Origin: a virus
DNA length: 64,000 bases
IMG/VR virus record: IMGVR_UViG_3300032893_000005
Span: 90,092-154,091 of that record
Reading direction: 5' to 3' (one strand)
Shown: piece by piece, positions 16,397 through 63,468 of the stretch
Numbering within the stretch: position 1 is the first letter of the stretch
How the letters are laid out: each line of letters opens with the position of its first letter
The notes under the pieces: generated by a model
The model's database searches: none
Seen by the model: only the letters and a program-made list of their open reading frames with translations
Told to the model about the DNA's origin: nothing
Translations under genes and position numbers: made by a program

Positions 16397-16660
16397 TTAG
16401 GCGGGTGTTACCTTCTGATTAAGATCTTGACCTAACTTACTGTCTTTGTTATCTTTTTCACTATCCTCAACCTCGCAGAAGTCGACGTTGAAGTTCGCGA
16501 GCTTCCAGCCGTAGGGCTTCAGGACCTTGTTGGCCTCAGCGTGGGCCTTCTTCAGGATGGCGTTCACCTGGTTACCCAGTTCTTCAGCCATCCTCATGCG
16601 CTCGCTGACTCCCATGCTTGCTAGTGGACGGGCGTTTTCTTTTACTAAGCGCTTACTCAT
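16397..16660 (-). CDS. hypothetical protein
   Basis: ORF with AAAGGG RBS; contains a late-promoter motif in its 3' end. Confidence 0.7.
   Translation of the reverse strand: MSKRLVKENARPLASMGVSERMRMAEELGNQVNAILKKAHAEANKVLKPYGWKLANFNVDFCEVEDSEKDNKDSKLGQDLNQKVTPA
16418..16450 (-). promoter_or_regulatory. late promoter element copy 1
   Basis: minus strand AACAAAGACA-gtaag-TTA-ggtca-AGATCTTAAT, 56 bp before ATG 16362. Confidence 0.75.
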
Positions 16661-16671
16661 GTGGCCCTTTC

Positions 16672-17106
16672 TTATAGTTGACCGATGATCGCGATGGCGA
16701 CCAAGAGGTCAAGCTGCGAAGGTGTGGTCTCGTTCTTAACTATGAAGCCGACTCGGACAACCCAGTCGCCTTCCACGAATCCGTCAACCCCGATGTCAGG
16801 CTTGTCGTTGGTGAGCCCACCGGAGAGCGATACGAACACCGCGTCACCGGGCGAGAACATGCCGACGTTGTAGATCGTGCCGCTCGCGATGATCGTACCC
16901 TGGCTTCCGTTACCCACAGTGGCGACCGTGAGGCCAGCCAAGGATAGGACGTCAGCTTCCAGTGTAGGATTTATAGTAGCCATGCCTGTAGCTGTAATCT
17001 TTACAGGCAAGGCAGCACCGATCGCAGACCCCGTGTTGTTGGTCGAGGTCTTGGTGATCGACTGCGCCTGCACTGGTATGCCGAAGCTCTGGGAAGAGTA
17101 GCTCAT
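16672..17106 (-). CDS. virion structural protein (cement/decoration-like fold, similar to C-terminus of 13972..16362)
   Basis: TAATG coupling; G.AVFVS.SGGLT..P...W.VRVG pattern. Confidence 0.6.
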   Translation of the reverse strand: MSYSSQSFGIPVQAQSITKTSTNNTGSAIGAALPVKITATGMATINPTLEADVLSLAGLTVATVGNGSQGTIIASGTIYNVGMFSPGDAVFVSLSGGLTNDKPDIGVDGFVEGDWVVRVGFIVKNETTPSQLDLLVAIAIIGQL

Positions 17107-20100
17107 TAGTTGATCCACCATTGTACCCCATCGCTCGACACGTCGATCGAGTCGCCTGGGTTCGTGAGTACCTTGGTCATCGCGAAGTCGATGTTGTCGG
17201 CTCCAGACACTGTGACGGTGTTAGCTGACATATCCTTCTTCTTGATCGTGAACCTTACGCCAGTCGCACTGCTCGCAGAAGGCAGCGAGATGATGATCGA
17301 GGCAGAAGATGCGTCAGCGAGCACGAAGTCGTCGACTCCTAGGGAGATCGTGTGATTCGCGCTGTAAGTCGTGAAGCTTCTGTTGTTCGAGATGCCTGCC
17401 AAGAACACGCCGCGAGTCTGCTTGCGGTAAGCGCCTAGGCCTACGTCGTAGATGAGCAGGTAGTTCGAGTTGTTCGCGACCGAGTCAGTCGGCAGGTGGA
17501 CGAAGTCGTCGTCGGGAGCACCGCCGCCAGTTCCAGGACCGCCAGGCATCCTGATCTTGAAGTCGAGGACGTCGCCAACGACTAAGTTCTGGTTGATCTG
17601 GATGGTAGTCGACTGAGCACCGAACACTCCAACCTCAGTCCAGCCGCCGGTCACAGAGTCTACGTTGGTGAGCGGCAGGAACTGACCGTTGAGGAACAGG
17701 TCAAGCCAACCTTTACCGACGGTGTAGTACTGCGTTGCGTTAGAGTTTCGAGAGTTGAGCGGCAAGGTGATGTTCGTGCCGGACGTTATCGGTCCGTTGA
17801 TCTGGTTGTTGCCAGAAGCACCGCTCGTGACCAACAGCAGAGACTCGTCGTACGCGGGGTTCGACAAGGTCGTGAAGATGCTGTTGATGTTACCAGCACA
17901 GATCGAGATCGCGATGGTCAGCGAGTCAGCGCTCGAGAACGTGTAAGGGCTTCCAGCCTGAGGGAAGATGGTGTAAGGCGGAGAGGTGTCGGACTCTGAC
18001 TCAGAGCCGATGAACTTCAGGATGTTGAGCAGCGTCGGATCGTCGATCTGAGCTGAGTCGCCCTGCTCGAGTACGCCGTTACCACCACGCAGTCTTAGGT
18101 AGATGCGAGGAGTCGCAGTGACAGAACCGTCGCCCGCTATGCCGCCGCCAGTCTCAGAGTAGACCTGGTAGTACGTCGTGTAGTTTGCGCTTGCGTAGCT
18201 CACGCCGCCGTTGGTAGTTGCGACCGAGTAACCGGCAGACTGAGGAGGAGTTCCGGTACTCTTCAGACGCGCAGCGTTGAAGCTGTCCGCCGTCGTACCC
18301 TTGATCATCCACACGTAGTTTCCAGCAGAGAGGCTCGGGTAGCCAGCGCCGGTGAACGTGAAGTCGATGTCTGCCAAGTTGGTGATGGCGGTCGCAGCTA
18401 CTACGTCAGAAGACGCGAGCACGGAGCCAGTGGGCACGTTGCCCGAGGCTGCGTACACGTCGATGTACACGTTGCCGGTCGGAGTTCCCATGGGGTTACC
18501 GCCGACGACCGTGATCTTACCTAAGTTGATGCCAGCGCCGAGCGAGAAGTTGTTACCCTGCCAGTCCTGAGTCGTGATCGATCCAGTGTCGAAGCCGCTA
18601 GATGGAGCAGGAGTAGCGCCGGTCAAGCCGTCTGCGACGAGAGTATAGGCCGGTGATCCGCCGGAGACGTCGGGGCCAGGGTTGTAGACCGTGAAGGTCT
18701 TAGAGCCCGTGACCGCCTGGATGTCGTACTTGCCGTCGAAGCTCGAGTCGTTGGCGCCCGCGATCGTGATCGCCTGTCCTACGACGAGGTTGTGGTTCAA
18801 AACTGTCTTAACAGTCGCGTAGTTGCTCGCCCGAGACAGACCGCCGTTCGCAGGCGTGTCGATCATGAGGGTCGTGAACGCGTTGTCGTCGCGCTTCGCT
18901 AACCAGTAAGTATCCCCTGACACTGGTACTGCCGTGGGATCAGCAGCGGTGACCGTGCCGTAAGTTCCCTGACAGCGAAGTGCCTTGCCAGTAACGGTCG
19001 TGCCGATGTAGTTGGACGCGAGGGTGATCGTGCTGCCGGACACCATGCTGACCTTGGCGTAGGCCGCGATGTTGTCAGCCGCGTACTTGACCCAGTCGCC
19101 AGCGCTGATGCCGCTTATGGTGTTCGCAGCAGTTATCGTGTTGGTGCCGTTGGTGAAGGAGAACGTGTTCGATGACTGGAAGTCTTGGTCGCGGACGAGG
19201 CTGACGTAGCAAACCTGACCGTCGTTGAGTTCGACGCTCCCCTGAGTGATAGTGTAAGTCAGCGGGCCGAAGATCGACCTGACGAGGACGTTTGAGGTCC
19301 ACTCGAGCAAGCCTGCAGTGGCTGGATCATGTACGAATGCGCCAGAGCCAGTGATGACTGAGAACTCAGCGTTGAACGCGAGGTTTGCGACGCTGGCACC
19401 AGGGATCAGCGAAGATCCGTTGACGTACCAGAGGGAGCCGCCTGACAGGTTCAGGATACGGCTCATCACCATGTCCATCCAGTCCTTGAACTTCAGGAGG
19501 TTGAAGTCACCGTTCTGGAAGGGGTCTGGCTGGCCGTTGGCCGTGACGATGAGAGGATTCTCAGCAGTTAATGACGCAGTGTAGTAAGGGTTCGGAGCAG
19601 CTCCACCTTGTCCTAGACGGAATGGCGAGTACTTGGCGTTCTCGATGCTGATCGCAGCGCCTGAGCTGTTGACGCCCACGATCGCAAGCGGCATGTTGGT
19701 GCCGAAGCCTGAGGTGTTGATGACGATCTGGTACTCGAGCACGAGCCCAAGCGGGACGTTCTTCGTGAACTCAACCTTGGCGTCGACGTCCCAGAAGCTG
19801 ACCAGGTCGTTGGTCGAGGGATCAGTCGCGCGGAGTAACTGGACAGATACGTAGTTGGTAGCCCCTGAGGTGAAGGAGCCGACGACGTTCGGGTTCGTCG
19901 CGTTCAGGATCTCGTTCGGGGTTCCAGCGGGAACTGTGAGGTAGGAGCCATCGGCCTGGCCAGGCATCCATATGACGCTGTCCGACACAGACACTTGGAT
20001 GGTCGATGCCTGAGCGTTGATGTAGTTCGCCGCGTTCGGTATGTAGAATCCCCTAAGGGTGTAGGGCGAAGTACCGATGAAGCCGGACAGTAAGGCCCTG

Positions 20101-20192
20101 AAGTCGAAGATGTTTCCATCCTCGATCATCTTGAGGTGAGGGACGTCTACGCGCTGAGCCTGAAGCCAGTTAAACCGCTGTGTATTTGCCAT
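17106..20192 (-). CDS. baseplate-attached long tail fibre/structural protein
   Basis: N-terminal R.NW...QRVD.PHL; multi-domain S/T/G-rich; C-terminal 'ADAS...ISLP...IKKKD.SANTVTV...DG..W' fibre domain. Confidence 0.7.
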   Translation of the reverse strand: MANTQRFNWLQAQRVDVPHLKMIEDGNIFDFRALLSGFIGTSPYTLRGFYIPNAANYINAQASTIQVSVSDSVIWMPGQADGSYLTVPAGTPNEILNATNPNVVGSFTSGATNYVSVQLLRATDPSTNDLVSFWDVDAKVEFTKNVPLGLVLEYQIVINTSGFGTNMPLAIVGVNSSGAAISIENAKYSPFRLGQGGAAPNPYYTASLTAENPLIVTANGQPDPFQNGDFNLLKFKDWMDMVMSRILNLSGGSLWYVNGSSLIPGASVANLAFNAEFSVITGSGAFVHDPATAGLLEWTSNVLVRSIFGPLTYTITQGSVELNDGQVCYVSLVRDQDFQSSNTFSFTNGTNTITAANTISGISAGDWVKYAADNIAAYAKVSMVSGSTITLASNYIGTTVTGKALRCQGTYGTVTAADPTAVPVSGDTYWLAKRDDNAFTTLMIDTPANGGLSRASNYATVKTVLNHNLVVGQAITIAGANDSSFDGKYDIQAVTGSKTFTVYNPGPDVSGGSPAYTLVADGLTGATPAPSSGFDTGSITTQDWQGNNFSLGAGINLGKITVVGGNPMGTPTGNVYIDVYAASGNVPTGSVLASSDVVAATAITNLADIDFTFTGAGYPSLSAGNYVWMIKGTTADSFNAARLKSTGTPPQSAGYSVATTNGGVSYASANYTTYYQVYSETGGGIAGDGSVTATPRIYLRLRGGNGVLEQGDSAQIDDPTLLNILKFIGSESESDTSPPYTIFPQAGSPYTFSSADSLTIAISICAGNINSIFTTLSNPAYDESLLLVTSGASGNNQINGPITSGTNITLPLNSRNSNATQYYTVGKGWLDLFLNGQFLPLTNVDSVTGGWTEVGVFGAQSTTIQINQNLVVGDVLDFKIRMPGGPGTGGGAPDDDFVHLPTDSVANNSNYLLIYDVGLGAYRKQTRGVFLAGISNNRSFTTYSANHTISLGVDDFVLADASSASIIISLPSASSATGVRFTIKKKDMSANTVTVSGADNIDFAMTKVLTNPGDSIDVSSDGVQWWIN

Positions 20193-20591
20193 TTAGATCT
20201 GCCTTCCAAGCCACTTGATGGGATCTCTGATGGACTCGTTCTGTTCTGGAGTTTGCCACGCAGAGACGCAGTAGTTGACCGGTTGAACACCGCCGACGAC
20301 GCCAGGCAAAGCTTCTACGTTGGTGCCACAAGTGACCTTGAACGGTTCCATGCCCGGAGGTAAGTCGCCGACGTAAGGTGCTGGGTAGCCGGGCCACGGT
20401 TGGACTGCAGGAGTGACGATGATGTTCGGGTGAAGGATCGTAGGAGGAATATACGGTGCCACGTAGGGAACTTGTACGGGCTGGGCCAACACTTCTGCCT
20501 TAAGCTTGAGGGCTTCGATGATCTGTTTCTGTATGTTAACCAGGTCTTTGAGAGCCTGGACCTCTTGCTCGAGGGCTTCTTCGCGGGTCAT
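20193..20591 (-). CDS. hypothetical protein (coiled coil + Pro-rich)
   Basis: AAGGTG RBS downstream of a late promoter. Confidence 0.7.
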   Translation of the reverse strand: MTREEALEQEVQALKDLVNIQKQIIEALKLKAEVLAQPVQVPYVAPYIPPTILHPNIIVTPAVQPWPGYPAPYVGDLPPGMEPFKVTCGTNVEALPGVVGGVQPVNYCVSAWQTPEQNESIRDPIKWLGRQI

Positions 20592-20618
20592 CGTTTCACC
20601 TTAGATTGGCAGGACTGC

Positions 20619-20771
20619 CTAGGACTGGGTGTCCTCAGGATTAAGATCTTGAGCTAACCGGCTGATTTGCTTGTCTTTCTTTCGATCGTATTTGGTCTCA
20701 TCACCGTGATTTTTGTTCGGCGGTAGCTTGAGGCGCATGCTGGGCTTCTGGACCTTCTTAGGCTTTCGCAT
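20619..20771 (-). CDS. small basic protein, 50 aa (not in ORF track)
   Basis: MRKPKKVQKPSMRLKLPPNKNHGDETKYDRKKDKQISRLAQDLNPEDTQS; fills the gap after the endonuclease. Confidence 0.5.
   Translation of the reverse strand: MRKPKKVQKPSMRLKLPPNKNHGDETKYDRKKDKQISRLAQDLNPEDTQS
20640..20672 (-). promoter_or_regulatory. late promoter element copy 2
   Basis: AAGCAAATCA-gccgg-TTA-gctca-AGATCTTAAT, 49 bp before ATG 20591. Confidence 0.75.
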
Positions 20772-21210: not shown

Positions 21211-21222
21211 ACAATTACTTTA

Positions 21223-21663: not shown

Positions 21664-21688
21664 AAGTTACTCGCTGTAATTGTCCTAA

Positions 21689-21822
21689 AAGACTACTTTA
21701 ATGGTCTAAAACTGGGTTAACTGCTCTTCTTAGACTACTTAAGTGGTCTAAGTATTGGGACAAAAAATGTCCCGATTGTGTCCCGATTGTCGCATAATTG
21801 CGACAAACGATGTCGCAATACT
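21689..21822. repeat. array of phased palindromes
   Basis: (A/T)AGACTACTT(T/A)A(A/G)TGGTCTA x2 at 42 bp spacing; TTG(G/C)GACA-N5-TGTC(C/G)C(G/A)A x2 at 43 bp spacing. Confidence 0.8.
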
Positions 21823-24702: not shown

Positions 24703-24932
24703 CAGTCGTGCTCGTAAGTTCCGGTCCCGTAGTTCATCTCGTACTCCGTAGCGTTGTACTCGACCGCTATGTGCAGGTTATCAACTTCCCAGCACTTTCT
24801 GCCAGCCTCGAGGCCGTAGCCGTTCATGCATACCTCGTCGAGCGTGCCGATCATGTTGAACTTACCGAGGTGCTTGCTGAGAAGCGGGTGTCCTTGCAGG
24901 TGAAGTGATGAGTTTACGTTGCCTGACTTCAC
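24702..24932 (-). CDS. hypothetical protein inserted in the baseplate operon
   Basis: GTGA coupling. Confidence 0.5.
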   Translation of the reverse strand: MKSGNVNSSLHLQGHPLLSKHLGKFNMIGTLDEVCMNGYGLEAGRKCWEVDNLHIAVEYNATEYEMNYGTGTYEHD

Positions 24933-27900
24933 GAAGCAAGGCTCACGATCACGTCCGTGCTGAGGCTCAGGACGATCGGCTTCTCGTTCGGCTGGCTGAT
25001 GATCTGGTCGTTGGTCGCGTTGTAGGTCGGGCTCGAGATACTGACGGCCTGGACACCAGCGATCGACTGGGCAGCAGAGACGATCTGCGAGAATACCACG
25101 GGATCACCAGCACCAAGGCTGTTGATGTAGGAGGCCACTGCGGTCTGAACTCTGTTACGCACCACGGCAAACGGAGTACCAGTCTTGTTGCGGATGACGA
25201 TGCTGACCTGGATTCTCTTCTTGAGCGCCGAGTCGATCTCGATGTAGGAGCCAGCCGCTGCGACGCCGGGGTAAGTGATCGGGTCAGAAGCCTGACCACG
25301 GATGACTTGACCCACTGCGTTGATTAGGCCGCCGTAGTGCTGGTACGAGTCCGCGCCGACCGCCACGTTGGTGTTGAAGGCAAGCTTGCTGACTGCGCTG
25401 ATGCTGGACGCGCCCGAGCTGTTGATCTTGTTGAAGAGGTCGATGCCCTCCACCACGATGTCTGCGTAGTTCACGTTGATCGGTGACTGCGCGACGTTTG
25501 CGATCTTCGCGTACTGGGTGAACGGGAACTCCTCGATCACGGTCACGTTCACGAAGTCAGCGCCCAGGGTGTTGGTAGTGACAGAGTTCTTGCTGAGCGT
25601 GGGCGTAGAGATCGCGATCTGAGTGTCAGAGCTGATGCCGGTGACCAGGTACTCACCCTTGCGAGTCTCGACGGGAACGCTCGAGTCATCGAGTAAGCTC
25701 GTTCCGAGAGAGAACGTGTCGCCAGGACGCACTGAGTCATAACTTATGACGTGGATGTCTGAGGCGCCTGTCAGGATGTAGTCGCCGACCATCGCCGACG
25801 GATTCTCGAAGTAGATGGTGCTTGAGCCGAAGGTGTTGACGACCAGGAACTCGCCAGCGTTGCCGAACGTGAAGACGCCGGAGAACACTGCGCGATCGCC
25901 CTTGTAGAGTCGCTTGAGGACTGTGCCGGACGCGGCTGCTGATACAACGTCAGGAGAACCAGACTGTAAGTACTGGAACGCCGTGGTGCTCGAGGCCATA
26001 GCACGGAACTTACCGTTGAAGCTCGAGTCGTCAGAACTCACTTCGATCGTGGTGAAGCTGTTGACGGGGACGTTGTGCGCTGCGCTAAGAGTGATGGTAG
26101 ACACACTCGAGGTGCGCTGCTTGTTAGTGACCGTCATGGTCTTCGAGAAGTTAGGAGCCGTGCCGAGGCCAGTCCAGGAAGCTGCGATGAACTTGCCCTG
26201 CTTCTCGAGCCTGATCTGAGTCGTGTTGTCAGAGTCGTGGTAGCGCTGAGTCTGGAACCATCCAGTCTGCTCGAGGTTACCGGTGTTGGAGTTCGAGATG
26301 CTGATCTGTGCAGTACCGAGGCTGGGGTTAACGCCCATGAAGCTGATCTCAGTTCCAGCACTGAAGCCTAAGTCTTTGGTAAGCTGGACGCCGTTCTGGA
26401 TCTTCACCCACTGGCCAGCCACGAAGCCGCGCATGGCAGCCTTCGGGATCGCGAACTTGGTGTAGGACGTTGACACGACGCTTCCAGAATCCTGCACAGC
26501 CCCTGAGATGGAGTTGGCAGTACCGCCGGAGACCTCGACTGCGCCAGAGGAGCCGAAGAGTTCAGAGTAGAACTGGACAGCGCCTGCGTTGTCGCAGACC
26601 CCAGCCTGAGCGAGCGAGCTTAGACCGGTGACAGCGAACACGTTTACGTACCTGGAGAGCTGGTCAGCGTCGGTCGGGATCAAGTAGAAGTCTTCGCCGA
26701 CGAGCTGAGAGCCGCTGATGGCGAGCGGAGTCTTAAGCGAGAAGTAGTTCACCGGCACCGAGACAGTGCCGATGTTGCTCACGTCTACCCAGTTCTCGCC
26801 GTCTGCCAAACCAATGAACGCCTCAGAGCCCAGGCTATCGTCGAGGGTAGAGGTGGTGATGTTGCCAGCACCAGACTCCAACTGAGAGAGTGAGATGTAA
26901 GAAGCAAGGTTCGCGGTTACGTACGTCGCCGTTGTGAGTGCCGTATCCCCTGACAAAGGGAAGAACTGGAGCGACGATGCGCTTGACAGAGTGCGTCCGG
27001 TTTCCAGCGTGCCGCCGTACTTGGTGATCTCGAAGTAGACGTTGGTGATCGCGGTTATCTTGTAGGAACCCTGATTGTTCGCGCTGAAGGTGGAGGCTGA
27101 GCTGATCGCAACGACGTCGCCGACCACTATGCTCGCAGACAAGAAGTTAGGGGCAGTGCCGATCGTGTTGTAGGTGTAACGCCATGTGTTACCGATCGGG
27201 TTGGTCACGTCGAACTGAGTGGTAGCATCCCAAGTGCCGCCGGTGCGCAGAGCCCCTGATGACAAGTAGAGCTGGACGCTGGTGTTTAGGTCGTTAGTGA
27301 TCGCGGACGACATCGGAGTGCTGGCCGCGTTCGGGTAGAAGAAGCCGACCTGCACCTGGTTACCGCTGGGACCGTAAGTGGCCGCGCGTACCAGCATCTT
27401 GTTGTTGGCGCCAGCAGGGTCAAGGACTGTTCTGGCCCTGAAGTGGACCTTGAAGTCGTTGAAGACGAAGTTGTTGCCGAAGCTTGCCGGGAAGTTCGAG
27501 GTAGGACCGAGGTCAGTGTCGTACGCGTTGAAGCTGTTTGCGCCGGTAGACGCGTAGACAGTTCCATGACGCCCCATGTTAATGTTGAACGTCTTGTTGA
27601 CCGTGTCCTTGTCGAAGATGCTGACCAGGTTGTCCTGGTAGCTGAAGTTGTAGCCCGACGCCACGTAGTAGCGATCGTTCTGGATGATGTCATCCATCTT
27701 AGGAGAGTTACGCAGTGTGACAGAAGTTCCGGTGATGAGTTCAAGCCGCTGCTTCAGTCCCCTGTTCGAGCTGATGAGCCCGTTGTAGGGATCAAGCCAC
27801 TTGAAGACCTTGTTCGGGTTAACCCCTAAGGTAGCAAGGTTCTGGTTGGTGATCGCGTTGGTGTAAGGAGTCGTTGCGTCGCCTGTCGCGATGCTGTCGT

Positions 27901-30466
27901 GGATGAACTCGATGAAGGTCTCGTCCGGGTTCGAGTCTAGGAAGGCAGTGTGAGATACGCCGCTCTGCGACAAAGTTCCGGCAACAAACCCCAGACTGGA
28001 AGCAGAGCTGTTGTAGCCTGCCATGTACAGGTAGCCGAGGTTAGAGTCGTACGTGTCGGTAGAGATGCGTACGGTGTTCCCAGCGACTGCGGCAGCGAAT
28101 CCCCCAATTAGAGTAGAGGTGATGCTGTTCGCAAGCGAGCTTATGGTCTGAAGCCCCGAAGGTAGTAAGACCTGCTGCATGTCGCCAGCAGACCGCGCGA
28201 AGAACAGGTCGCTTACGCCGCCTAGGGTCTTTGACTCGGCCACGCCGCTGGTAGACCGGCGTACGTCGAAGTAGTTCGCGGCAGTGGCATCCACGCGCCA
28301 GTAGCCTACGTTGGTAGCGGAGAAGCCAGCGTTCTCGGGCACGACGACCCAGTCACCTACGTTCACGTTGACGAAGGCGTTCGCGACGCTCGAGGTGTAG
28401 CGCCAGATGTTCGTCGTGGGGTTCGATACCGTGATGGTTGATCCGCCCGTGGAGCCATGCGTCACAGCCTGAGCAGAGCCATCGACGATGAGCCATATCT
28501 TAGGATTAGGGCTGACGGACAGGTTGATCGATCCGCCGGTGATGACTGCAGAATCGAGGAAAGCCCGAGTGCTGGTAGACCCAGCCGTGAAGACGTCACC
28601 CTTAGTCGCAGGCGTTACAAGCTCGATCTGACCGGTTGAGCGGTTGAGCGCGTAGTCGCTTGCCTTGCCGTCTTCTGACACGCCGAGGGCAAACATGAGG
28701 CCAGATGCGACTAGGGTACCGCCGGTGATCGCGATGCTCGCGACGTTGCTTGCTCCCTTGTTAGAGCTTACCTGGAGAGATCCGAGTCCGCTGTCTGCGA
28801 ACGTGGCTCCTGCGATCTTAGTGTTGAGGACGGACGCCCATGCGAGGAGCGAGTTGTTGGCGTTTACGGTAGCGTAGCCGTACGGGATGAAGTCAGAGTC
28901 GTTGACGGTTGCAGTCTGACTGATGCCGTCGACTTCGACGATGAGCGTCATACCACTCGTTATGCTTGGTGACCAGGCGCTCTGAAGGTTCGAGAATACG
29001 GTGGGGACCACGCCGTCCTTTATCAGGAGCTTCTCGTTCTTGTAGAGGCGGAGGGTGTAGGTAAGCGTGGTCGGGAAGCCCAGGAACTGGTTGGCGTCTA
29101 TTCCGGAGATCGGCGCAGTAACCTGGATGTCCTCGTTCACGAAGTCTTTGGCAAAGAGCGTTATGAACGCGTCGTTCATGAACGAGCGAGCGCTGAAGAG
29201 CAGAGTGCTGTTCGCGTTGATGGAGTTGACTACCTCGAAGGTGTCAGCCGCGTTCGGAGTTGCGAAGTCGCTGTCTGCGAACTGGTGCTGACTTAGGACA
29301 CCACCGACTAAGACGCTAAGTGTCATTCCACCGGTGATGGCGAACGGAGTCTGAAGCGTCGAGATGACGATGGCCTTGGTGAGGTCCTGGTACTGGAGCT
29401 GGAGGTACTTCTCGCCGCCGTTAGCATCGTCGATGATGGACTCAAACCCCTGACCCGAGAAGATCGGCTCGTACCCTGCACCGTTGTCGATGAAGAGAGT
29501 GCCAGGCTCGTTGCGGTTGGCGGGCTGCCTGAACTTAGCGGACGTGACCGTTTGCTGGTCATCGCTCGAGGTGATGTCGATCGCGGAGTTCTCGACGGCC
29601 AAGGTCGTAGCCTTGGTCTTCGTGGCTGCCGTCTTCTTGATGAGGTCACGGTAGTCGTCGTCGGCCATCGTGTCCCGGCCAGAGGTGAATCCGATCGGGT
29701 TAGTGGCAGTGGCGTTTGGAAACGGTGCGTTACCAAATCCCACCACGGCAGCAGCGGGTACGTTGCTCGTCGATCCAGGCGTAGTGGCCACGACGGGAAC
29801 GTCAGATAACTGCTGCTCTCCGTCAAGGAGCGTGACTGATGCCAGAGTCCTGAACGTGGTAGCGGGGCTCGTGAGAGTTGCCTGTGTCTGGACGATGGAG
29901 CCGGACTGGACAACCCTGTTGCCGCCCTGCGCCAAGATGACGGTCTCGCCGAGGTTGTGGTTCTTTGCTGTGACGGTTGACAAGGTGATCTGGAAGTAGG
30001 AGCCCACCGGCGTGATCGCAGTGTAGGCGATCGGACCTTCTAAGTTGTTGGTTCCACGACCGATGTAGATCGAGCCTTGCTGCGGGAAGGCTGAGCCGTC
30101 GGCCACGTTGACGTACTGAGAGCCAGCCGGAGGTGCTGGGGTTCCCTGGTAGACCTTGGTCGCGACCTTGACGAAGCTCGCCTGAGAGATCGTGACGGTA
30201 CCGTTGGACGGCCTTGCTTGTGGTCTGGGAACTCCCTGTCCGTTGCCGTAGTTGTCGAGGTCTGAGCCCGACAGGTTGTCGATGTCGACTGAGGCCAAGG
30301 CAGTCATGATGTCGCCCTGGATCTTGAAGTCGTTCAGGACCGCAGTCTCGGCAAAGGAGCGCCCGGCGCTTCCTACGGCGAGGTCGTTCGTTCCCGACTT
30401 GGTTACCCAAGTGCGGATGAACGTGTTAAGCATGGACGTGAATGACGTTTGTGTCGGTACTGCCAT
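24929..30466 (-). CDS. baseplate J/gp6-like wedge protein with very large insertion
   Basis: GSA.R...G..LD..G....R..A N-domain; G.D...DD.YR; C-terminal YINSL..GD.V..S.I...I.GV..V. Confidence 0.85.
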   Translation of the reverse strand: MAVPTQTSFTSMLNTFIRTWVTKSGTNDLAVGSAGRSFAETAVLNDFKIQGDIMTALASVDIDNLSGSDLDNYGNGQGVPRPQARPSNGTVTISQASFVKVATKVYQGTPAPPAGSQYVNVADGSAFPQQGSIYIGRGTNNLEGPIAYTAITPVGSYFQITLSTVTAKNHNLGETVILAQGGNRVVQSGSIVQTQATLTSPATTFRTLASVTLLDGEQQLSDVPVVATTPGSTSNVPAAAVVGFGNAPFPNATATNPIGFTSGRDTMADDDYRDLIKKTAATKTKATTLAVENSAIDITSSDDQQTVTSAKFRQPANRNEPGTLFIDNGAGYEPIFSGQGFESIIDDANGGEKYLQLQYQDLTKAIVISTLQTPFAITGGMTLSVLVGGVLSQHQFADSDFATPNAADTFEVVNSINANSTLLFSARSFMNDAFITLFAKDFVNEDIQVTAPISGIDANQFLGFPTTLTYTLRLYKNEKLLIKDGVVPTVFSNLQSAWSPSITSGMTLIVEVDGISQTATVNDSDFIPYGYATVNANNSLLAWASVLNTKIAGATFADSGLGSLQVSSNKGASNVASIAITGGTLVASGLMFALGVSEDGKASDYALNRSTGQIELVTPATKGDVFTAGSTSTRAFLDSAVITGGSINLSVSPNPKIWLIVDGSAQAVTHGSTGGSTITVSNPTTNIWRYTSSVANAFVNVNVGDWVVVPENAGFSATNVGYWRVDATAANYFDVRRSTSGVAESKTLGGVSDLFFARSAGDMQQVLLPSGLQTISSLANSITSTLIGGFAAAVAGNTVRISTDTYDSNLGYLYMAGYNSSASSLGFVAGTLSQSGVSHTAFLDSNPDETFIEFIHDSIATGDATTPYTNAITNQNLATLGVNPNKVFKWLDPYNGLISSNRGLKQRLELITGTSVTLRNSPKMDDIIQNDRYYVASGYNFSYQDNLVSIFDKDTVNKTFNINMGRHGTVYASTGANSFNAYDTDLGPTSNFPASFGNNFVFNDFKVHFRARTVLDPAGANNKMLVRAATYGPSGNQVQVGFFYPNAASTPMSSAITNDLNTSVQLYLSSGALRTGGTWDATTQFDVTNPIGNTWRYTYNTIGTAPNFLSASIVVGDVVAISSASTFSANNQGSYKITAITNVYFEITKYGGTLETGRTLSSASSLQFFPLSGDTALTTATYVTANLASYISLSQLESGAGNITTSTLDDSLGSEAFIGLADGENWVDVSNIGTVSVPVNYFSLKTPLAISGSQLVGEDFYLIPTDADQLSRYVNVFAVTGLSSLAQAGVCDNAGAVQFYSELFGSSGAVEVSGGTANSISGAVQDSGSVVSTSYTKFAIPKAAMRGFVAGQWVKIQNGVQLTKDLGFSAGTEISFMGVNPSLGTAQISISNSNTGNLEQTGWFQTQRYHDSDNTTQIRLEKQGKFIAASWTGLGTAPNFSKTMTVTNKQRTSSVSTITLSAAHNVPVNSFTTIEVSSDDSSFNGKFRAMASSTTAFQYLQSGSPDVVSAAASGTVLKRLYKGDRAVFSGVFTFGNAGEFLVVNTFGSSTIYFENPSAMVGDYILTGASDIHVISYDSVRPGDTFSLGTSLLDDSSVPVETRKGEYLVTGISSDTQIAISTPTLSKNSVTTNTLGADFVNVTVIEEFPFTQYAKIANVAQSPINVNYADIVVEGIDLFNKINSSGASSISAVSKLAFNTNVAVGADSYQHYGGLINAVGQVIRGQASDPITYPGVAAAGSYIEIDSALKKRIQVSIVIRNKTGTPFAVVRNRVQTAVASYINSLGAGDPVVFSQIVSAAQSIAGVQAVSISSPTYNATNDQIISQPNEKPIVLSLSTDVIVSLAS

Positions 30467-30511: not shown

Positions 30512-30544
30512 ATTAAGATCTGGGTTTAACTATATGATCTTACT
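30512..30544 (-). promoter_or_regulatory. late promoter element copy 3
   Basis: AGTAAGATCA-tatag-TTA-aaccc-AGATCTTAAT, 46 bp before ATG 30466. Confidence 0.75.
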
Positions 30545-30546
30545 AG

Positions 30547-41104: not shown

Positions 41105-41466
41105 TTCTCAGCTATCTTGTTCACTTCTTCAAGCCAAGCCTTCTGCTCGGCGTTGGTCTTCACTAGGAGGTCGTACAAGGGATCAGAGTCGATCAAGTCG
41201 CGGCCTTCGCGACTGCCTCCCCACCAGGGAGCAGTGCAGGATACGACGCGGACTCGAAGCTCGGCGATGGTCGCGTGCCTGAACTTCAGGTCGTCCTTGA
41301 CACCGTTGTCGTCCGGCAGCTCTTCCTTGTAGTTGCGCTCAACCTCGGCTTCTTCCGAGTTAGTGAGCACTACCTTGACCTTGAATGTTCCTATGTACCG
41401 CGAACCGGTCTTGTCGCCCTTACAGTCGATCTGAACCGTTCTGACGCGGTCTGGCAAAGTTTTCAT
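41101..41466 (-). CDS. tail assembly chaperone (gpG-like position)
   Basis: G..TG..Y.GTF.VK...L.VRV...P.WW motif; first gene of the TMP unit. Confidence 0.6.
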   Translation of the reverse strand: MKTLPDRVRTVQIDCKGDKTGSRYIGTFKVKVVLTNSEEAEVERNYKEELPDDNGVKDDLKFRHATIAELRVRVVSCTAPWWGGSREGRDLIDSDPLYDLLVKTNAEQKAWLEEVNKIAEK

Positions 41467-41519: not shown

Positions 41520-41552
41520 ATTAAGATCTGGAGTTAAGTTATTGTTATTGTT
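41520..41552 (-). promoter_or_regulatory. late promoter element copy 4
   Basis: AACAATAACA-ataac-TTA-actcc-AGATCTTAAT, 54 bp before ATG 41466. Confidence 0.75.
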
Positions 41553-41598
41553 AAAGAAGATACCCATTGCGACTAGGCTAAAACTAGGGCAAAATTAA

Positions 41599-49079: not shown

Positions 49080-49400
49080 TTATATGATGACTAACTCACC
49101 ATCTCCATCAATGATAACTGTTCCACCAGCGTCGAGGTCCATGTACGAAGCTAAGGTCATGGTCTCGCCAGCACCTATCTCAACCGTGTCAGTGACGTGA
49201 TTCTTTGTTACGAAGCCCTGTGCTTCGATCGCGCCGCCGTCTTGAACCGTCGTGTTCGGACTGTTCTGTATCGTATCGCCGCCGGTTCCAACCCAGCGAG
49301 CGATAGCCTTGTCGGTCGTCGGTGCCACGCCGCTCACGTTGCCTGTGGGCTGAACGTAGTAGTCGAGGGTTCCTGTAAATGGGCTGAACTTGTACGGCAT
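49080..49400 (-). CDS. small virion protein
   Basis: MPYKFSPFTGTLD N-terminal motif; TDKAIARW.GT.G..IQNS. Confidence 0.65.
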   Translation of the reverse strand: MPYKFSPFTGTLDYYVQPTGNVSGVAPTTDKAIARWVGTGGDTIQNSPNTTVQDGGAIEAQGFVTKNHVTDTVEIGAGETMTLASYMDLDAGGTVIIDGDGELVII

Positions 49401-50032
49401 TAGTTGTCTATCCTGAAAGCGTTGGTGATCAAGTTCTTGCTCGCGTCACTGTAATTTACGGTTACAAGCTGTACGTTGGTACCAGAGACCCCACCGACCT
49501 TCGACTGATACTGTTCCTGGGTTGAGGTAGGATAGGTGACCACGACTGCGTCGTACGGCTTCGAGAATAAGGAAACGCTGTTGACCTCGACGTTGACTTC
49601 AGAGTCCGTACTAAGACGCACTTTGCCATCGTCTCCAACGGTGGAGTCGATGTAGCGTCCGTACTTGTCGACCTGGGCTTGCCTGAGTCCGACTATCGGC
49701 TCGCGGGCGTAGACAGCGTTCTGGATGTCGTCTGGCTTGATGACGGGTATGTTCTGACGCGGTGCAGTAAGATCCGCGCTGTCAGCTACCGTGAACGCCG
49801 TCAAGTCTGAGAACTGGTTGAGGTCAGTGCTGGGAAGACCGAGCTGGACTTGCGTGGGTGAAAGGACAGCTTTGACTTGGAACGTGGTCTTAGGCTGGGT
49901 ATTCGATGCCAGGGAGACTGCCATCTTAGTGTAGAGTCCGAAGGTATCGGCAACTGAGATGATCCCGTTGAGAGTGCCGTCTGCTGTGAGTGGAGTAGTG
50001 GAATACGCATCCCACCTGCGCTCTGTGGACAT
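49400..50032 (-). CDS. virion structural protein
   Basis: first gene after a late promoter; PYDAV..TYP...E.Y....GG.SGT...V.V.Y C-domain. Confidence 0.65.
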   Translation of the reverse strand: MSTERRWDAYSTTPLTADGTLNGIISVADTFGLYTKMAVSLASNTQPKTTFQVKAVLSPTQVQLGLPSTDLNQFSDLTAFTVADSADLTAPRQNIPVIKPDDIQNAVYAREPIVGLRQAQVDKYGRYIDSTVGDDGKVRLSTDSEVNVEVNSVSLFSKPYDAVVVTYPTSTQEQYQSKVGGVSGTNVQLVTVNYSDASKNLITNAFRIDN

Positions 50033-50101: not shown

Positions 50102-50134
50102 ATTAAGAACTATACGTAACTCTATGTTTTCATT
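50102..50134 (-). promoter_or_regulatory. late promoter element copy 5 (one mismatch)
   Basis: AATGAAAACA-tagag-TTA-cgtat-AGTTCTTAAT, 70 bp before ATG 50032. Confidence 0.65.
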
Positions 50135-50162
50135 GACTTTATTCTTCTGATTACCTCCTGAC

Positions 50163-57370: not shown

Positions 57371-57838
57371 TTAGGTTCCCGAGAGAAGGTCAGAAGCGCC
57401 AGCCGACTCACCCTGTGAGCCCGACTCGTCTTCAGCTCTCAAGCCGAGGAAGCGTGCAGTGAACGCGCTGATCGATCGAGCAGCAACGTCAGTGTCGTAA
57501 CCTTCCGGGCGTACGCCGAGGACGGTCATGATCTGCTTGTTGGTCTGACGATCAAAGATCGCGATGCTGATGTCTTCGTGGTTCAAGAGGTCTTGTAACT
57601 TCGGGATGTCGGCTGCAACGTGAGCACCGTTGTTGACCACACGGAAGCCAGAAGCCGTCACGCGGATAGCTTCTTGAGCGGTGTACGTCAACTCAGCGGG
57701 CGAGTAGCGACCGAGGATGAAAGCAGGCTGAACATCGTATGCGACGCCCCAGCTACAGTTCGTGAAGATCCCTTGGATCTTCCCGTTGACGATAAGCTGA
57801 GCCCTCGCACCATTTAGAATTTGCTGGGTGGTTCCCAT
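57371..57838 (-). CDS. tail tube protein
   Basis: 155 aa gene immediately after the sheath; GARA...NG...G; ILGRYSP.E. Confidence 0.8.
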   Translation of the reverse strand: MGTTQQILNGARAQLIVNGKIQGIFTNCSWGVAYDVQPAFILGRYSPAELTYTAQEAIRVTASGFRVVNNGAHVAADIPKLQDLLNHEDISIAIFDRQTNKQIMTVLGVRPEGYDTDVAARSISAFTARFLGLRAEDESGSQGESAGASDLLSGT

Positions 57839-57855: not shown

Positions 57856-60663
57856 TTAAGCAGCAGCGCTGGCCTTGATGCCTTCGATCTCGAGCGTGAT
57901 CGGGGCAAAGCGAATCGAAGTGGCTTCGATGACAACTGCGTCAACGAGCAAGACGTCCTCGTCGAGTTCAGCGTTGATGCTGATCCAACCGCCGGGAGCA
58001 CCTTGCTGAGGCGACCTGACGATGAGCTTCTTGTTCAAGAACTCTTCCATCTTCGCCTTGACGAAGGAGATGACGGTCGAGGGTTGAACGTCGGCCACAG
58101 ACTCACCGACGAACGCGTCGCGGATTGCCTGAGCCAAGCTGAGGGCGATGATGTCGGCCACGTAGACAGCTTGCAAGCTGTTGTAGACGAAGTTGTTGTC
58201 GACGCCGTAGGTCGTTTGGTCAGTACGGAACCGGAACGAACCGTCTTCCATCTGACTGACGGGGATCATGCCGGACAAGATGGCCTGTTCGACCAGCGAG
58301 TCAGCCTGATCGTCGAAGCCGACGGGGTTCACGACGCCAGAGATCTGAAGAGCCTTGTTGTAGATGGCCTTGTAGAAGCCAGCGGCTTGCATACCGGCGA
58401 CCTTCGCAGCGCCCATCCAAGGTTGGAAGGTAACGATGGCGCCTTGTGAGTTCAAGTCCTTGATGCTCTGGAAGCACATCGTGCAACGGAAGCTTGCCAG
58501 GATCTCAGCAGCGGACTGCTGGTTCTGGAAGGTATCGAGCTTCGAGACCTGAGCAACGCGGTGACGCTTCACCTTAGGAGTCGACATCGCGATGACGTGG
58601 GCGCGGGCCGCAGCGTTCGCAGCGTCGACTGTGTAAGTAGAAGACTGGTCAGTAAGTCCAGCCGCCGAGTCAAGAGTTGCGTCTTGGCTGACGAGGGGAA
58701 CTACGAAGTTGCAGCGAACGGTCGACAGTGCCGTGATGGACTGAGCCATCTGCAGCGCGGTCGTTCCACCCTTGGCACCGCCAGACAAGAAGTAGGGTCC
58801 TTCGTCGTCGGGGAGACCGGCAGTAGCGATCGGCATGTAAGTGACCTGAATAGAGGAAGCGGCGATGTTGCCGGGTCCAGCGGTCAAGTCCCAGATGTCG
58901 CGCTTGATGAGTCCAGGAGCAGTGCTCGCGACGTCCGAGCAGATGCCGACGTTAGAGACTTGGTCCAAGATCATAGGCGAACGCTGAGCATCCGTGCCAG
59001 ATCCAGGCTGAGCGTAGTAGCCAGCGTTGGAGCTGATCAAGGCGCAGAGGTCAGAGATCGTGTTTACGCTGTTCAAGATGATCGACAGGTTCGTGCCCGA
59101 TCCACCAGTGACGCTGGTGGTGAGCATGAGGTTCGCGCCGCTCATGGCTATGCTCATGGTAGCAGTCGTTCCCAAGTAGCCGACTTCGAGGGCGATGTGA
59201 CCGCCGACGATCGGGCTCTCGTTCACGTTGGTGATCGAGTTTGAGAAGCTGAACTGCTTGGCGAACTCGGAAGCCGAGTCGAGCTGTTGGCCGATCCACG
59301 AAGCTGCGTTGGCAGTTCCGAGGTTCAAGAACAAGGTGTTGATGTTGACGGCACCGGCGTTGTCCAAGATCATCATGGACTTACCAACACCGCGAATCTG
59401 ACGATCCAAGACTTGGACGTCCGAGGTAGCGGCGATCGCGGTCGAGCTGACAGCGACGGGCGAGCCGTTAGACAGGCGAGAAGCCGTGACGTAGGCAGAG
59501 CCAGCGACGTTGTTCACTGCCGAGACTTGGTACCAGCCGACGTTGGCAGAACCAGCACCGGCGTAGGCCGAGCTGGAAGGAATGTGCAACCAGTCACCGA
59601 TCTGCGGATTTGAGGCAAACTTGCCAGTAGCCAGAGCGAAGGTGATGGCCGGACCAGCGACGGAGACGGAAGCGTTGACGCCGACCAGTCCAGTCAGTAC
59701 TTGTCTATCTGTTCCTGACATGTTGTTGATCGATATCGAGCTGTAGTCGACCAGGTCGTTGGCGGGAGTGGCGGAGAGGGCTACGGAGGAGACCGCGACC
59801 GGAGCACCGGCAGTGATCTTCACTGCAGATATGCTGGCCGAAGCCGACGTGTTGCTGACCGCAGTGACGATGTACCAACCGACGTTGGCGTTACCGACAC
59901 CAGCTATGACGGAGCCAGACGGGATGTTCATGGAGTCGCCGATTGCAGGCGAAGCACCGAACACAGCCGGAGCAGTCAAGCTGATGGTTACGTTCTGGCC
60001 AGAAACCGCGACTGCGATCTGGTTTGACGCACTGAGTCCAGACATGATGTTCTGGTTGACGCCGCCGACTGCGTTGAGGTTGTTCAGCGCGGTGATGGCC
60101 TGTGCAAGAGACGAGGGAAGGGTGTTCGCGCTGATCGCGAGTGCCTGCTTGGCTCCGCCGTTTACGCGGATGTCGGCAGAAGCGCCGGAAGCAGACGGAG
60201 CGTACGAGAACTTGCTGGTCGATGGAGCGACTTCGTCGACTGCGGTCGAGATGCTCTCCTTGATGCTGTTACCGGGAGCACCGGCAGCATCGGCGAGGAT
60301 CTTGCCGTGACCGTCGTCAGTCTGCTTCATGGCGTTTAAGCCAAGGTTTGACTTGACAAGGATGAATCTCTGAGGCGAACCTTTAATACGAGACGAGGCA
60401 GAAGCGGCAACGGCGCCGCGATAAGCATCGACCAGGCGGCCCGAACCGTACTTGGCCACAACGCGGTTAATGTCGCCGGGACCGAAAGAATTGCTTGAAA
60501 GACGATCTTCTTGGGACCACTGAGGACCTTGGTCAGCTTCGCCAACGAGAGCTATGACGCCAGTCGTGGCAAGACCTTGCGGATTCGAGATCACCGACGT
60601 GGCGATCGACGAGTCCGGGATAATCAGTGTTGATCCATCGGCTGTAACATAAACTCGAGCCAT
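57856..60663 (-). CDS. contractile tail sheath protein
   Basis: N-terminal VIALVGEAD.GP; LSGG.KG; C-terminal sheath domain (AG.QA...LI..G...D.TT...AD...F.PI). Confidence 0.85.
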   Translation of the reverse strand: MARVYVTADGSTLIIPDSSIATSVISNPQGLATTGVIALVGEADQGPQWSQEDRLSSNSFGPGDINRVVAKYGSGRLVDAYRGAVAASASSRIKGSPQRFILVKSNLGLNAMKQTDDGHGKILADAAGAPGNSIKESISTAVDEVAPSTSKFSYAPSASGASADIRVNGGAKQALAISANTLPSSLAQAITALNNLNAVGGVNQNIMSGLSASNQIAVAVSGQNVTISLTAPAVFGASPAIGDSMNIPSGSVIAGVGNANVGWYIVTAVSNTSASASISAVKITAGAPVAVSSVALSATPANDLVDYSSISINNMSGTDRQVLTGLVGVNASVSVAGPAITFALATGKFASNPQIGDWLHIPSSSAYAGAGSANVGWYQVSAVNNVAGSAYVTASRLSNGSPVAVSSTAIAATSDVQVLDRQIRGVGKSMMILDNAGAVNINTLFLNLGTANAASWIGQQLDSASEFAKQFSFSNSITNVNESPIVGGHIALEVGYLGTTATMSIAMSGANLMLTTSVTGGSGTNLSIILNSVNTISDLCALISSNAGYYAQPGSGTDAQRSPMILDQVSNVGICSDVASTAPGLIKRDIWDLTAGPGNIAASSIQVTYMPIATAGLPDDEGPYFLSGGAKGGTTALQMAQSITALSTVRCNFVVPLVSQDATLDSAAGLTDQSSTYTVDAANAAARAHVIAMSTPKVKRHRVAQVSKLDTFQNQQSAAEILASFRCTMCFQSIKDLNSQGAIVTFQPWMGAAKVAGMQAAGFYKAIYNKALQISGVVNPVGFDDQADSLVEQAILSGMIPVSQMEDGSFRFRTDQTTYGVDNNFVYNSLQAVYVADIIALSLAQAIRDAFVGESVADVQPSTVISFVKAKMEEFLNKKLIVRSPQQGAPGGWISINAELDEDVLLVDAVVIEATSIRFAPITLEIEGIKASAAA

Positions 60664-60691
60664 CTCTGTCTCCTAACTCAACTTGTCAAGG

Positions 60692-60724
60692 ATTAAGATC
60701 TACGGTTAAATCCTTGAATTTACT
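60692..60724 (-). promoter_or_regulatory. late promoter element copy 6
   Basis: AGTAAATTCA-aggat-TTA-accgt-AGATCTTAAT, 29 bp before the sheath ATG. Confidence 0.75.
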
Positions 60725-60958
60725 TTACTTCTCAATGGGGATGCCAAAGTGTATGAGGCCATCGATCCACTTAGTCTGGTCATTCCACATGCCAATACGC
60801 TTGAGGTGGACCTTCGCGGACTCCTTCAAGATCTTGTCCCCGTTCTTAACGCAAGAGGCCCAGCATTGGTCAAAGCTCGTCCATACAGGTCGCTGGTGGT
60901 TCCTAACGTCCTGGTTCGACTGAGCTTCTTGCTGTTCTTCACTGCGCTTCTTAGCCAT
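60725..60958 (-). CDS. small hypothetical protein upstream of the sheath
   Basis: AAGGTGAG RBS; F...W...HLK.IG.....GL.HFG. Confidence 0.7.
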   Translation of the reverse strand: MAKKRSEEQQEAQSNQDVRNHQRPVWTSFDQCWASCVKNGDKILKESAKVHLKRIGMWNDQTKWIDGLIHFGIPIEK

Positions 60959-60967
60959 TTACTCACC

Positions 60968-62776: not shown

Positions 62777-63000
62777 TGCCTCATCCTCTCGTACGCTCTG
62801 ACGAGTTCTCTTCCGAACGGCGTCACTAGCGTATCTTCGTCAACTGCTTCGAGCTGCACCAGCTTGTAGAAGGACATGCCGAAGCAGAACCAATTCTTCT
62901 CGGGTAGGTAAGACGCTTGAGAGAGCAGGTCCATGTCACGAACAGTGAGGTCCTCGATCTTCCACTTGCGCTTCTTCTTCAAGATTACTTGGTTCACCAT
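62773..63000 (-). CDS. hypothetical protein
   Basis: overlap couplings on both sides. Confidence 0.6.
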   Translation of the reverse strand: MVNQVILKKKRKWKIEDLTVRDMDLLSQASYLPEKNWFCFGMSFYKLVQLEAVDEDTLVTPFGRELVRAYERMRQ

Positions 63001-63425
63001 GACCCCGTCTTGTGATGATTGTTGACCACCTTCACAGCGTCCTCGACGTTTGAGAACATCTGCGGGTGACGTGCGATCGCGGAGCCATTAGCGCCTACTT
63101 GAGCGATCGATACGTGCGGTACCTTGCCCATCTTGTGGGCGTCTACCGTAACTTCATAATGCGGTGCAGCAGAACCCTTCATCCCCATCATGTGCACGAT
63201 CTTTCCGGCCTGAGTCGCCTTTCGACCTAGGTACTGGAGTGGACCTGCACTGGCACTGACCGGCGCCTTAGGCGCCTGGTTACCAGCCCTCATGAGCGGG
63301 ACGATGTTGTTGTCCTTCTTCAAGTCGGCTTCCCGGTTGAAGTGACCACGAACTTCTTGGATGGCCTGAGTCAGGTTCCTGAGTGAGGTAAGCTTCTTGT
63401 AGAGTTCTGGAGGGACGTCAGCCAT
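62994..63425 (-). CDS. head-region hypothetical protein
   Basis: LKKD motif; directly after a late promoter. Confidence 0.65.
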   Translation of the reverse strand: MADVPPELYKKLTSLRNLTQAIQEVRGHFNREADLKKDNNIVPLMRAGNQAPKAPVSASAGPLQYLGRKATQAGKIVHMMGMKGSAAPHYEVTVDAHKMGKVPHVSIAQVGANGSAIARHPQMFSNVEDAVKVVNNHHKTGSW

Positions 63426-63435
63426 ACTGCGTTAG

Positions 63436-63468
63436 ATTAAGATCTTGACCTAAATGGTTGTTATCATT
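63436..63468 (-). promoter_or_regulatory. late promoter element copy 7
   Basis: AATGATAACA-accat-TTA-ggtca-AGATCTTAAT, 11 bp before ATG 63425. Confidence 0.75.

Follow-up and report, generated by a model that had tools for sequence, protein, structure and literature searches.

Which signals turn on the structural genes of a large uncultured phage, and which proteins read them? The question is raised by an element repeated along IMG/VR virus record IMGVR_UViG_3300032893_000005 (G000 below), a phage contig of 154,091 bp whose completeness is rated 94%. The stretch under study, called the window throughout, is 64,000 nucleotides long and covers bases 90092-154091 of G000, so that a genome coordinate is the window coordinate plus 90091. 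A first-pass annotation, made from the letters of the window alone, had described seven copies of a two-part element, each with a 10-mer core and, at a fixed distance upstream, a sequence resembling the binding site of the Escherichia coli DNA-bending protein IHF (integration host factor), and had proposed a late transcription system read by a phage-encoded factor. Every prediction of this first reading that was tested computationally is supported. The sites are, we are nearly certain, promoters. On balance we favour the view that they are late promoters read by a sigma factor of the phage itself, with host IHF bending the DNA at the position of the -35 element.

We number the core columns 0-9, upstream columns being negative from there. 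The core, AGATCTTAAT, is exact at window positions 16418, 20640, 30512, 41520, 60692 and 63436 and carries one mismatch at 50102 (AGTTCTTAAT); all seven copies are on the minus strand, as originally described. With up to one mismatch allowed, nine core matches are found in the window where 2.07 ± 1.44 would be expected, again without a single one on the plus strand, and the upstream half is present at seven of the nine. The other two, one-mismatch cores at 6188 and 20191, were rejected as sites since the upstream half is missing; the latter (20191-20200, minus strand, AGATCTAAAT) lies over the start codon of the 1028-aa fibre gene and has no upstream box. The CA, the TTA and both 5-bp spacers had been called invariant, and the full pattern CA-N5-TTA-N5-AGWTCTTAAT is indeed found seven times in the window against 0.00 expected from 100 dinucleotide-preserving shuffles. 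The longer upstream string ARNNANNWCA also holds.

The bias of the element extends to the rest of the genome. There are nine exact cores in all of G000, every one on the reverse strand, with none on the forward strand and none for a reversed control pattern; the three copies outside the window lie at genome 9948, 18023 and 24539. Together with the one-mismatch copy this gives ten clear sites, all on the minus strand, and a variant at genome 7522 (GCATCTTAAT with TTA-N5) is a likely eleventh. AGATCTTAATC is the commonest 11-mer of the genome, and ATCTTAAT is the top enriched 8-mer in oriented upstream regions (P about 3e-12). Conservation reaches well past the columns that had been listed: among the ten clear sites A-23, R-22 (R, purine), A-14 and the TTA at -8 to -6 are invariant, A-19 is found in nine, C-15 and C-2 in eight each and T-21 in seven, and columns -18 to -16 are W (A or T). 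A purine stands at +15 in 10/10 of these sites and is a candidate start site.

Position relative to genes is equally constrained. In the window the minus-strand ATG follows the last base of the core after 55, 48, 45, 53, 69, 28 and 10 nt (first given as 11-70 bp), and genome-wide the sites stand 8-69 nt before the start codons of minus-strand virion or morphogenesis genes; gene calls are plain longest open reading frames (ORFs), so these distances are possibly off for some genes. No copy faces a plus-strand gene in G000. The plus-strand early genes have ordinary TTGAC-N17-TAnnnT promoters, as had been seen at the outset, and so does the operon that encodes the sigma factor. Strand bias, position bias and fixed spacers, which had been suggested as checks, are upheld genome-wide and in the relatives described below.

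Several features of the G000 copies deserve mention in their own right. At genome 9948-9990 and 18023-18065 an identical TTAAGGGTTTA stands where the CA box stands elsewhere, with TA for CA, and these two copies may form a variant subclass whose upstream recognition is weaker or different. Six of the seven window cores contain AGATCT, a BglII site with a Dam-type GATC; genome-wide the exceptions are AGTTCTTAAT at 50102 and GCATCTTAAT at 7522. Dam/GATC control as a general feature of the core was rejected, given that GATC is confined to G000, its relatives having AAATCT or AAAACT, so that methylation, if it played any part, would do so in this phage only. Finally, the only perfect match to the E. 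coli IHF consensus WATCAANNNNTTR in G000 lies at genome 65223 on the plus strand, inside a plus-strand gene, and is followed 5 bp on by TCGACTTAAG. It was not accepted as a site: it falls within a gene, the full core is missing, and the likeness is likely due to chance.

The phages to compare with G000 are distant ones. Among cultured phages, megablast with a 6-kb piece of the window gave no match, an IMG/VR search by the G000 sheath found no close relative, and an exact IMG/VR scan with the G000-specific motif returned single chance matches only. The sole cultured relative is Myxococcus phage Mx1, with sheath proteins 37.7% identical. Relatives were found only via the sigma family; AAAA or AAAT replaces AGAT in their cores. 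Four uncultured phages, picked as having the sigma factors nearest to that of G000, were compared: G001 (46.8 kb) and G002 (35 kb), both partial contigs, G003 (119.5 kb) and G006 (159.3 kb). Their sigma factors are 32-42% identical to that of G000 and their GC content is 36-42% (36-54% over all the box-bearing phages). P0002, the closest sigma relative (67% identity, on a 14-kb contig), was left out of the promoter comparison.

All four carry the two-part element. With 11 sites each in G000 and G003, two each in G001 and G002 and 17 in G006, there are 43 sites over five phages. The sites of G003 take the form AATAAAATCAA-N4-TTA-N5-AAAACTTAAT, and those of G006 have AAATCTTAAT; in G006 the reverse strand has 20 matches to the pattern TTA-N9-CTTAAT and the forward strand two, where a control pattern gives three and one. 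At least nine of the eleven G000 sites have a counterpart ahead of the orthologous gene in G003 and/or G006, including those of the sheath, the protease, the baseplate wedge, the 121-, 210- and 143-aa genes and fibres, although the orthologous proteins behind these conserved sites are only 27-55% identical. The core can be written A-R-A-W-C-T-T-A-A-T, with TAAT and C4 at 43/43 in the pooled logo of the 43 sites, and its four 5' bases drift between phages (AGAT, AAAA, AAAT). One other candidate motif, TCTTTAAT k-mers in the AT-rich relatives, was dismissed as coding noise.

What could read the core? A sigma factor, activator or RNA polymerase encoded outside the window had been predicted, and the whole G000 genome contains one sigma-70-family gene, on the minus strand at 28745-29746 (333 aa), 60 kb outside the window. 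Its region 2 is present (PF04542, Sigma70_r2, at 21.3-24.1 bits, which is at the cut-off), and it matches RpoD/RpoS/SigA models down to E 5e-14 and PDB sigma chains down to E 1e-8. Region 3 is present too, with alignments spanning positions 2-188 of RpoD_Cterm and the SigA and RpoS chains. The alignments to the PDB chains stop at region 4.1, and the protein as a whole consists of regions 1.2, 2 and 3 and a stub of 4.1, with no region 4.2 helix-turn-helix: it ends about 14-15 residues past LKGV, the expected start of region 4.2. An AlphaFold model (predicted local distance difference test score, pLDDT, 75.6) is all-helical to residue 317, and a Foldseek search of this model against PDB finds sigma chains only, at probability 1.00.

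The missing region is a property of the family. About 77 related proteins of 330-370 aa, and 168 IMG/VR loci, share the LKGV end; in an alignment of 19 members including that of G000 all end at or shortly after it, whereas RpoD continues for about 40 residues, the two RpoD sequences in the alignment running on through the helix-turn-helix. Since the whole family is shortened alike, the truncation in G000 is not an assembly fault. A frameshifted region 4.2 can be set aside for the same reason and because no frame contains anything like a continuation into it. Sigma70_r4 and r4_2 (PF04545, PF08281) have no match in the G000 genome at E<=10. A sigma split in two was also considered, with its region 4 encoded separately by the 96-aa gene (genome 28471-28761, minus strand) that overlaps the sigma stop codon and is found only in the clade with the two-part promoter. 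This was rejected: the 96-aa protein has no Pfam match at E<=10 and no PHROG match, and by its protein-language-model neighbours it is Cpn10/GroES-like. Lacking region 4.2, the sigma factor has no means of recognising a -35 box by the usual contact. Its gene comes after a helicase gene in a minus-strand operon with sigma-70-type promoters, a position that fits early or middle expression.

A T7-like polymerase was not found in G000, but this is a weak test, whose controls gave no match either. More distant members of the sigma family occur in G004 (171.7 kb, complete), G005 (94 kb) and Mx1, and of the promoter such distant phages retain the core alone, about AATCTTA. Mx1 carries a member that is annotated merely as a putative sigma factor, and its genome announcement describes no promoters; its core may be t-AGATCC. 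In G004 and G005 a core-only motif, a-CAATCTT-ag, stands 13-31 nt before many virion-gene start codons without any upstream box. A short core, about A-W-C-T-T-A, is thus common to box-bearing and distant phages, as one would expect of a sequence recognised by a conserved sigma region 2. In a maximum-likelihood sigma tree the five phages with two-part promoters form one clade (ultrafast bootstrap 97, Shimodaira-Hasegawa-like approximate likelihood ratio test, SH-aLRT, 91, stem 1.45), and among 80 sigma loci the two-part pattern is found at the five closest only. By this distribution the upstream box is a clade-specific addition. That the core is read by the phage sigma appears to us likely, and the core would fit a -10 element: with A at position 2 and T at position 6 it shows the A-11/T-7 pattern. 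The six bases in this register, GATCTT, seem to fit the positions conserved family-wide better than does the alternative, CTTAAT. Here the first-pass annotation needs correcting in part. It had found no resemblance to T4, sigma-70 or sigma-54 promoters, and none of the three types is matched as a whole; the core does, by our comparison, resemble a -10 element.

The upstream half can be compared element by element with a known protein's site. The canonical IHF site has four elements: a central WATCAA, a TTR 4 bp downstream of it, two base pairs, mostly AA, that lie 9 bp apart and mark the points of proline intercalation, and, towards the 5' end, a tract of 4-6 A (Senear et al. 2007, PMC1874591). 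The counterpart of WATCAA in the 43 sites is A-A-W-C-A-A at -18 to -13, with C-15 in 38, A-14 in 39 and A-13 in 29. The TTR is a TTA at -8 to -6 in 43/43, its 4-bp gap constant. For the intercalation steps, A-23 is present in 42/43, -22 is A in 29 and G in 14 (43/43 purine), and A-23 lies 9 bp from A-14; the invariance of A-23 had been noticed ahead of the comparison with the published elements. Columns -31 to -28 are A or T in 37-43 of the 43 sites (43/43 at -29) and A in 24-29, which is an A/T-rich tract at the expected place and not a pure A-tract. Also conserved are T-21 (37/43), A-19 (38/43) and W at -18 to -16. To judge from these columns, all four IHF elements, the A-tract in the looser form of an A/T-rich tract, appear in the correct register, and the likeness first noted goes beyond WATCAA-N4-TTR: it takes in a second step led by A, 9 bp further upstream, as well as the A/T tract on the 5' side. 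Scored against the E. coli consensus WATCAANNNNTTR, 10 sites have no mismatch, 18 have one, 11 two and four three; at a background position, up to one mismatch is met at a rate of 2e-4 to 1e-3. If the 34-bp site has its centre near -18/-19, it would leave 2-5 bp between its end and the core and would place the U-turn 32-35 bp upstream of the likely start, at the usual place of a -35 hexamer.

No HU/IHF-family gene was found in G000-G005, so a bender would be a host protein. The search for sigma, polymerase and IHF/HU genes that had been recommended yielded the sigma factor, and for the bender it points to the host. A scan of bacterial representative genomes turned up one 2-kb contig of a Gammaproteobacteria metagenome-assembled genome with a distant sigma-family member, which is uninformative as to that host. 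The box is constant over phages of widely differing GC content and 32-42% identical sigmas, and it stays so while the core changes at its 5' end, as would suit a box read by a conserved protein of the host and a core whose reader, a phage protein, evolves along with it. We lean towards host IHF as the protein that binds the upstream half.

Some observations weigh against this view. The G000 boxes are the weakest of the clade (one mismatch to the consensus in five, two in four and three in two), so that no G000 site has a perfect IHF consensus, and two have TA for CA. Where the published TTR admits either purine, all 43 sites have A, and T-21 and A-19 show conservation that the IHF elements do not call for, which suggests an added constraint or a different reader. 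The sigma of the box-bearing clade sits on a long branch (stem 1.45), and a change in the sigma or an unrecognised phage protein could explain the box. The -10 register is ambiguous between GATCTT and CTTAAT, and what ties the sigma to the core is their co-occurrence only. A rival explanation is that the promoters are late and read by the phage sigma, but that a clade-specific phage protein, an activator of the MotA or Lpa kind, binds the upstream half, the likeness to IHF sites being convergent or coincidental. The box is limited to one sigma clade, and this clade has several private genes without assigned function (for example a 129-aa gene adjoining the sigma operon); the TTA at 43/43 and the conservation of T-21 and A-19 beyond the published IHF elements point the same way. 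However, no DNA-binding family was detected in the clade-specific genes, the sigma-coupled 96-aa gene is Cpn10-like, the asymmetric box appears to match four separate IHF elements in register, and it has not drifted between phages with 27-55% identical proteins while the sigma-proximal core has. We therefore consider such an activator unlikely, if still worth entertaining.

Nor is a bender the only way to use the 34 bp. The holoenzyme might read them by itself, as a UP-like or extended element contacted by the C-terminal domains of the alpha subunits or by a surface specific to this clade's sigma. AWWTCA stands exactly 17 bp upstream of CTTAAT, in classic -35/-10 geometry, the upstream region is A/T-rich and the sigma is strongly diverged. 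Yet this sigma lacks region 4.2, no region 4 was found anywhere in the genome, and fixed positions separated by free spacers (A-23, CA, TTA) are like an IHF site and unlike UP elements, all of which makes the explanation improbable. Still further from the evidence is the idea that the repeats are not promoters at all and instead serve as operators, RNA-processing or translation signals, or packaging or replication sites. Two copies do lie just 8-10 nt from a start codon. The variable distance to the ATG, 8 to 69 nt, argues against a translation signal, though, and all copies are co-oriented with the gene behind them and head virion gene blocks; the -10-like core, the co-occurrence of a dedicated sigma and the rank of the element as the top enriched upstream k-mer also speak for promoters, and we give the non-promoter explanations very little credence.

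Our preferred reading, a phage sigma at the core and host IHF at the box, translates into the following scheme. Host sigma-70 polymerase would first transcribe the plus-strand early genes and, by way of TTGAC-type promoters, the minus-strand helicase/sigma operon. The phage sigma would then join the host core polymerase and read A-R-A-W-C-T-T-A-A-T as a -10-type element, the likeliest register being the one in which core position 2 is A-11 and position 6 is T-7. Transcription would start about 6-8 nt past the core, at the purine conserved in 10/10 clear G000 sites. The -35 position would be taken by the 34-bp IHF-type site, with its 3' TTA exactly 5 bp from the core, and host IHF would bend the DNA into a U-turn whose centre lies about 32-35 bp ahead of the start. 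This bend may stabilise or recruit the polymerase through direct contact, by wrapping the upstream DNA back, or by helping with melting. In its strongest version the scheme makes host IHF an obligatory part of the late promoter that replaces the missing region 4/-35 contact, with a single origin, within one clade among the Mx1-like phages, from core-only ancestors; for this version we see the case as evenly poised.

How does this compare with known systems? T4 late transcription depends on the sigma factor gp55, the co-activator gp33 and the sliding clamp gp45 (PMC2988020, PMC7892883). The parallel with G000 is that a truncated phage sigma without a -35 reader steers, or in G000 would steer, the host core polymerase to -10-type promoters of virion genes. 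The closest likeness is that of the core-only promoters of G004 and G005, which would be a T4-like, -10-only late promoter class; we found no description of such a class in truncated-sigma phages in the literature. The differences are in the proteins and the DNA alike: gp55 has likeness to region 2 only, whereas in the G000 sigma regions 1.2, 2 and 3 are retained along with part of 4.1; T4 uses the clamp and gp33 and no bender, whereas the G000 clade adds a fixed 34-bp IHF-like site. A gp45-type clamp (PF02916) had no match in the G000 genome, a weak test as it included no positive-control genome. The T4 late -10 box is TATAAATA and stands alone, whereas G000 has AGATCTTAAT together with a conserved 30-bp upstream half.

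IHF sites at fixed places in a promoter are known from sigma-54 enhancer-dependent promoters and from the gene transfer agent (GTA) of Caulobacter, whose promoter involves GafY, IHF and GafZ and, much as proposed for G000, drives phage-like structural genes (PMC11150451). At the GTA promoter, CA-to-GG and TT-to-GG changes abolished the binding of IHF (PMC11150451). In those systems, however, the core promoter is complete (-24/-12 or -35/-10) and IHF, placed between it and a far activator, loops that activator onto the polymerase, whereas in G000 the IHF-like site is at the -35 position itself, 5 bp from the core, and no upstream activator site is visible. The conserved columns have no GG or GC pair at the spacing of the sigma-54 GG-N10-GC (-24/-12) signature. 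Nor are they those of host sigma-70 (TTGACA/TATAAT), as AWWTCA stands at the -35 spacing and CTTAAT or GATCTT are the -10 candidates. In T4 middle promoters (MotA box) and P1 late promoters (Lpa box), the -10 element is accompanied not by a -35 hexamer but by a conserved box, at about -30 or -22. Those boxes are read by phage proteins together with host sigma-70; in G000 the box resembles the site of a host architectural protein and the sigma is the phage's own. The E. coli IHF site exemplified by lambda H' (PMC1874591) shares, at the right relative register, WATCAA, the TTR 4 bp on, the paired A-led steps and A/T richness towards the 5' end, and differs in that R is always A in the G000 clade, T-21 and A-19 are conserved and the 5' tract is A/T-rich instead of a pure A-tract. 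A literature search, which had most subscription journals outside its reach, found no IHF-type site at -35 paired with a sigma that lacks region 4.2.

The individual copies of this putative late promoter, all on the minus strand, head gene blocks as follows. The copy at window 16418-16458 (core 16418-16427, TTA 16433-16435, CA 16441-16442, A/T tract to 16458) precedes a 796-aa fibre-like gene (13972-16362, with fibre-like PHROG matches) and has a positional orthologue in G006. The 3' end of an 87-aa ORF (16397-16660, minus strand) overlaps it: the ORF ends in LGQDLNQKVTPA, its final 11 codons lie within the site and read QDLN there, and no homologue was found in the relatives. If this plausible gene does end inside the promoter, the promoter is constrained by coding sequence too. 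Two copies had been thought to persist in coding sequence as QDLN, and the other, at 63436, does not bear this out, as QDLN is read there in a 73-aa ORF that is spurious. The copy at 20640-20680, with the upstream box AATCAGCCGGTTA (one mismatch to the IHF consensus), precedes a 132-aa gene (20193-20591) and then the 1028-aa fibre gene (17106-20192), and orthologous sites lie ahead of the 1028-aa homologue in G003 and G006. The copy at 30512-30552 precedes the 1845-aa baseplate-wedge gene (gp6/J-like, 24929-30466), with orthologous sites in G003 and G006 at 83-90 nt from the homologue.

Further along, the copy at 41520-41560 (box TAACAATAACTTA) stands before a 121-aa gene (41101-41466), the first in a tail/baseplate operon, and the copy at 50102-50142, whose core is the one-mismatch variant, before a 210-aa gene (49400-50032) that is followed by a cluster of large genes (106, 875, 558 and 406 aa), which the first-pass annotation had called a fibre cluster; both have orthologous sites in G003 and G006. 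One of the site-led blocks in the window ends in an 832-aa baseplate protein. The copy at 60692-60732 (box ATTCAAGGATTTA) lies 28 nt before the tail sheath gene (57856-60663), behind which comes the tube gene (57371-57838), and orthologous sites are found 36 and 45 nt ahead of the sheath homologues in G003 and G006. In the last copy, at 63436-63476 (box TAACAACCATTTA), 10 nt separate the core from the start codon of a 143-aa gene (62994-63425) that adjoins the head region, and G003 has an orthologous site at an equally short distance; the gene upstream of this copy ends at 63464, so that its last codons reach into the site only from about -28 outwards. Outside the window, sites precede the head protease and then the major head protein, a 411-aa gene and then the portal, a block with a tail-fibre-like protein, and a 1065-aa protein. 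The ATG of the head protease gene (genome 17064-18032) is 8 nt past the core and that of the 143-aa gene (listed in this comparison as window 62994-63445) 10 nt, which would make these two late operons near-leaderless; both very short distances are kept at the orthologous sites in G003 and G006.

In bacteria, sigma recognises a promoter by its contacts with the -10 and -35 elements, or activators that touch sigma or the alpha subunit provide such contacts. The phages described here appear to offer a natural system of another kind, in which the sigma has no -35 reader and the site of a host DNA bender stands in its place at a rigid distance. The two-part design is repeated 10-17 times per genome and has been kept over phages whose proteins are otherwise only 27-55% identical. 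Should IHF bind, these promoters would be a clean model for bending alone replacing an upstream promoter contact, a means by which the phage ties late expression to the IHF level of its host and hence to growth phase, and a compact orthogonal promoter/sigma pair for synthetic biology. The architecture is a variation on known kinds of promoter, and one of high interest to transcription and phage biologists: if true, it would constitute a promoter class in which a nucleoid protein serves as the upstream recognition module of the holoenzyme. For the phages themselves, TTA-N9-CTTAAT plus the box supplies an annotation rule for the late operons of a large and almost wholly uncultured group, represented by 168 sigma loci in IMG/VR.

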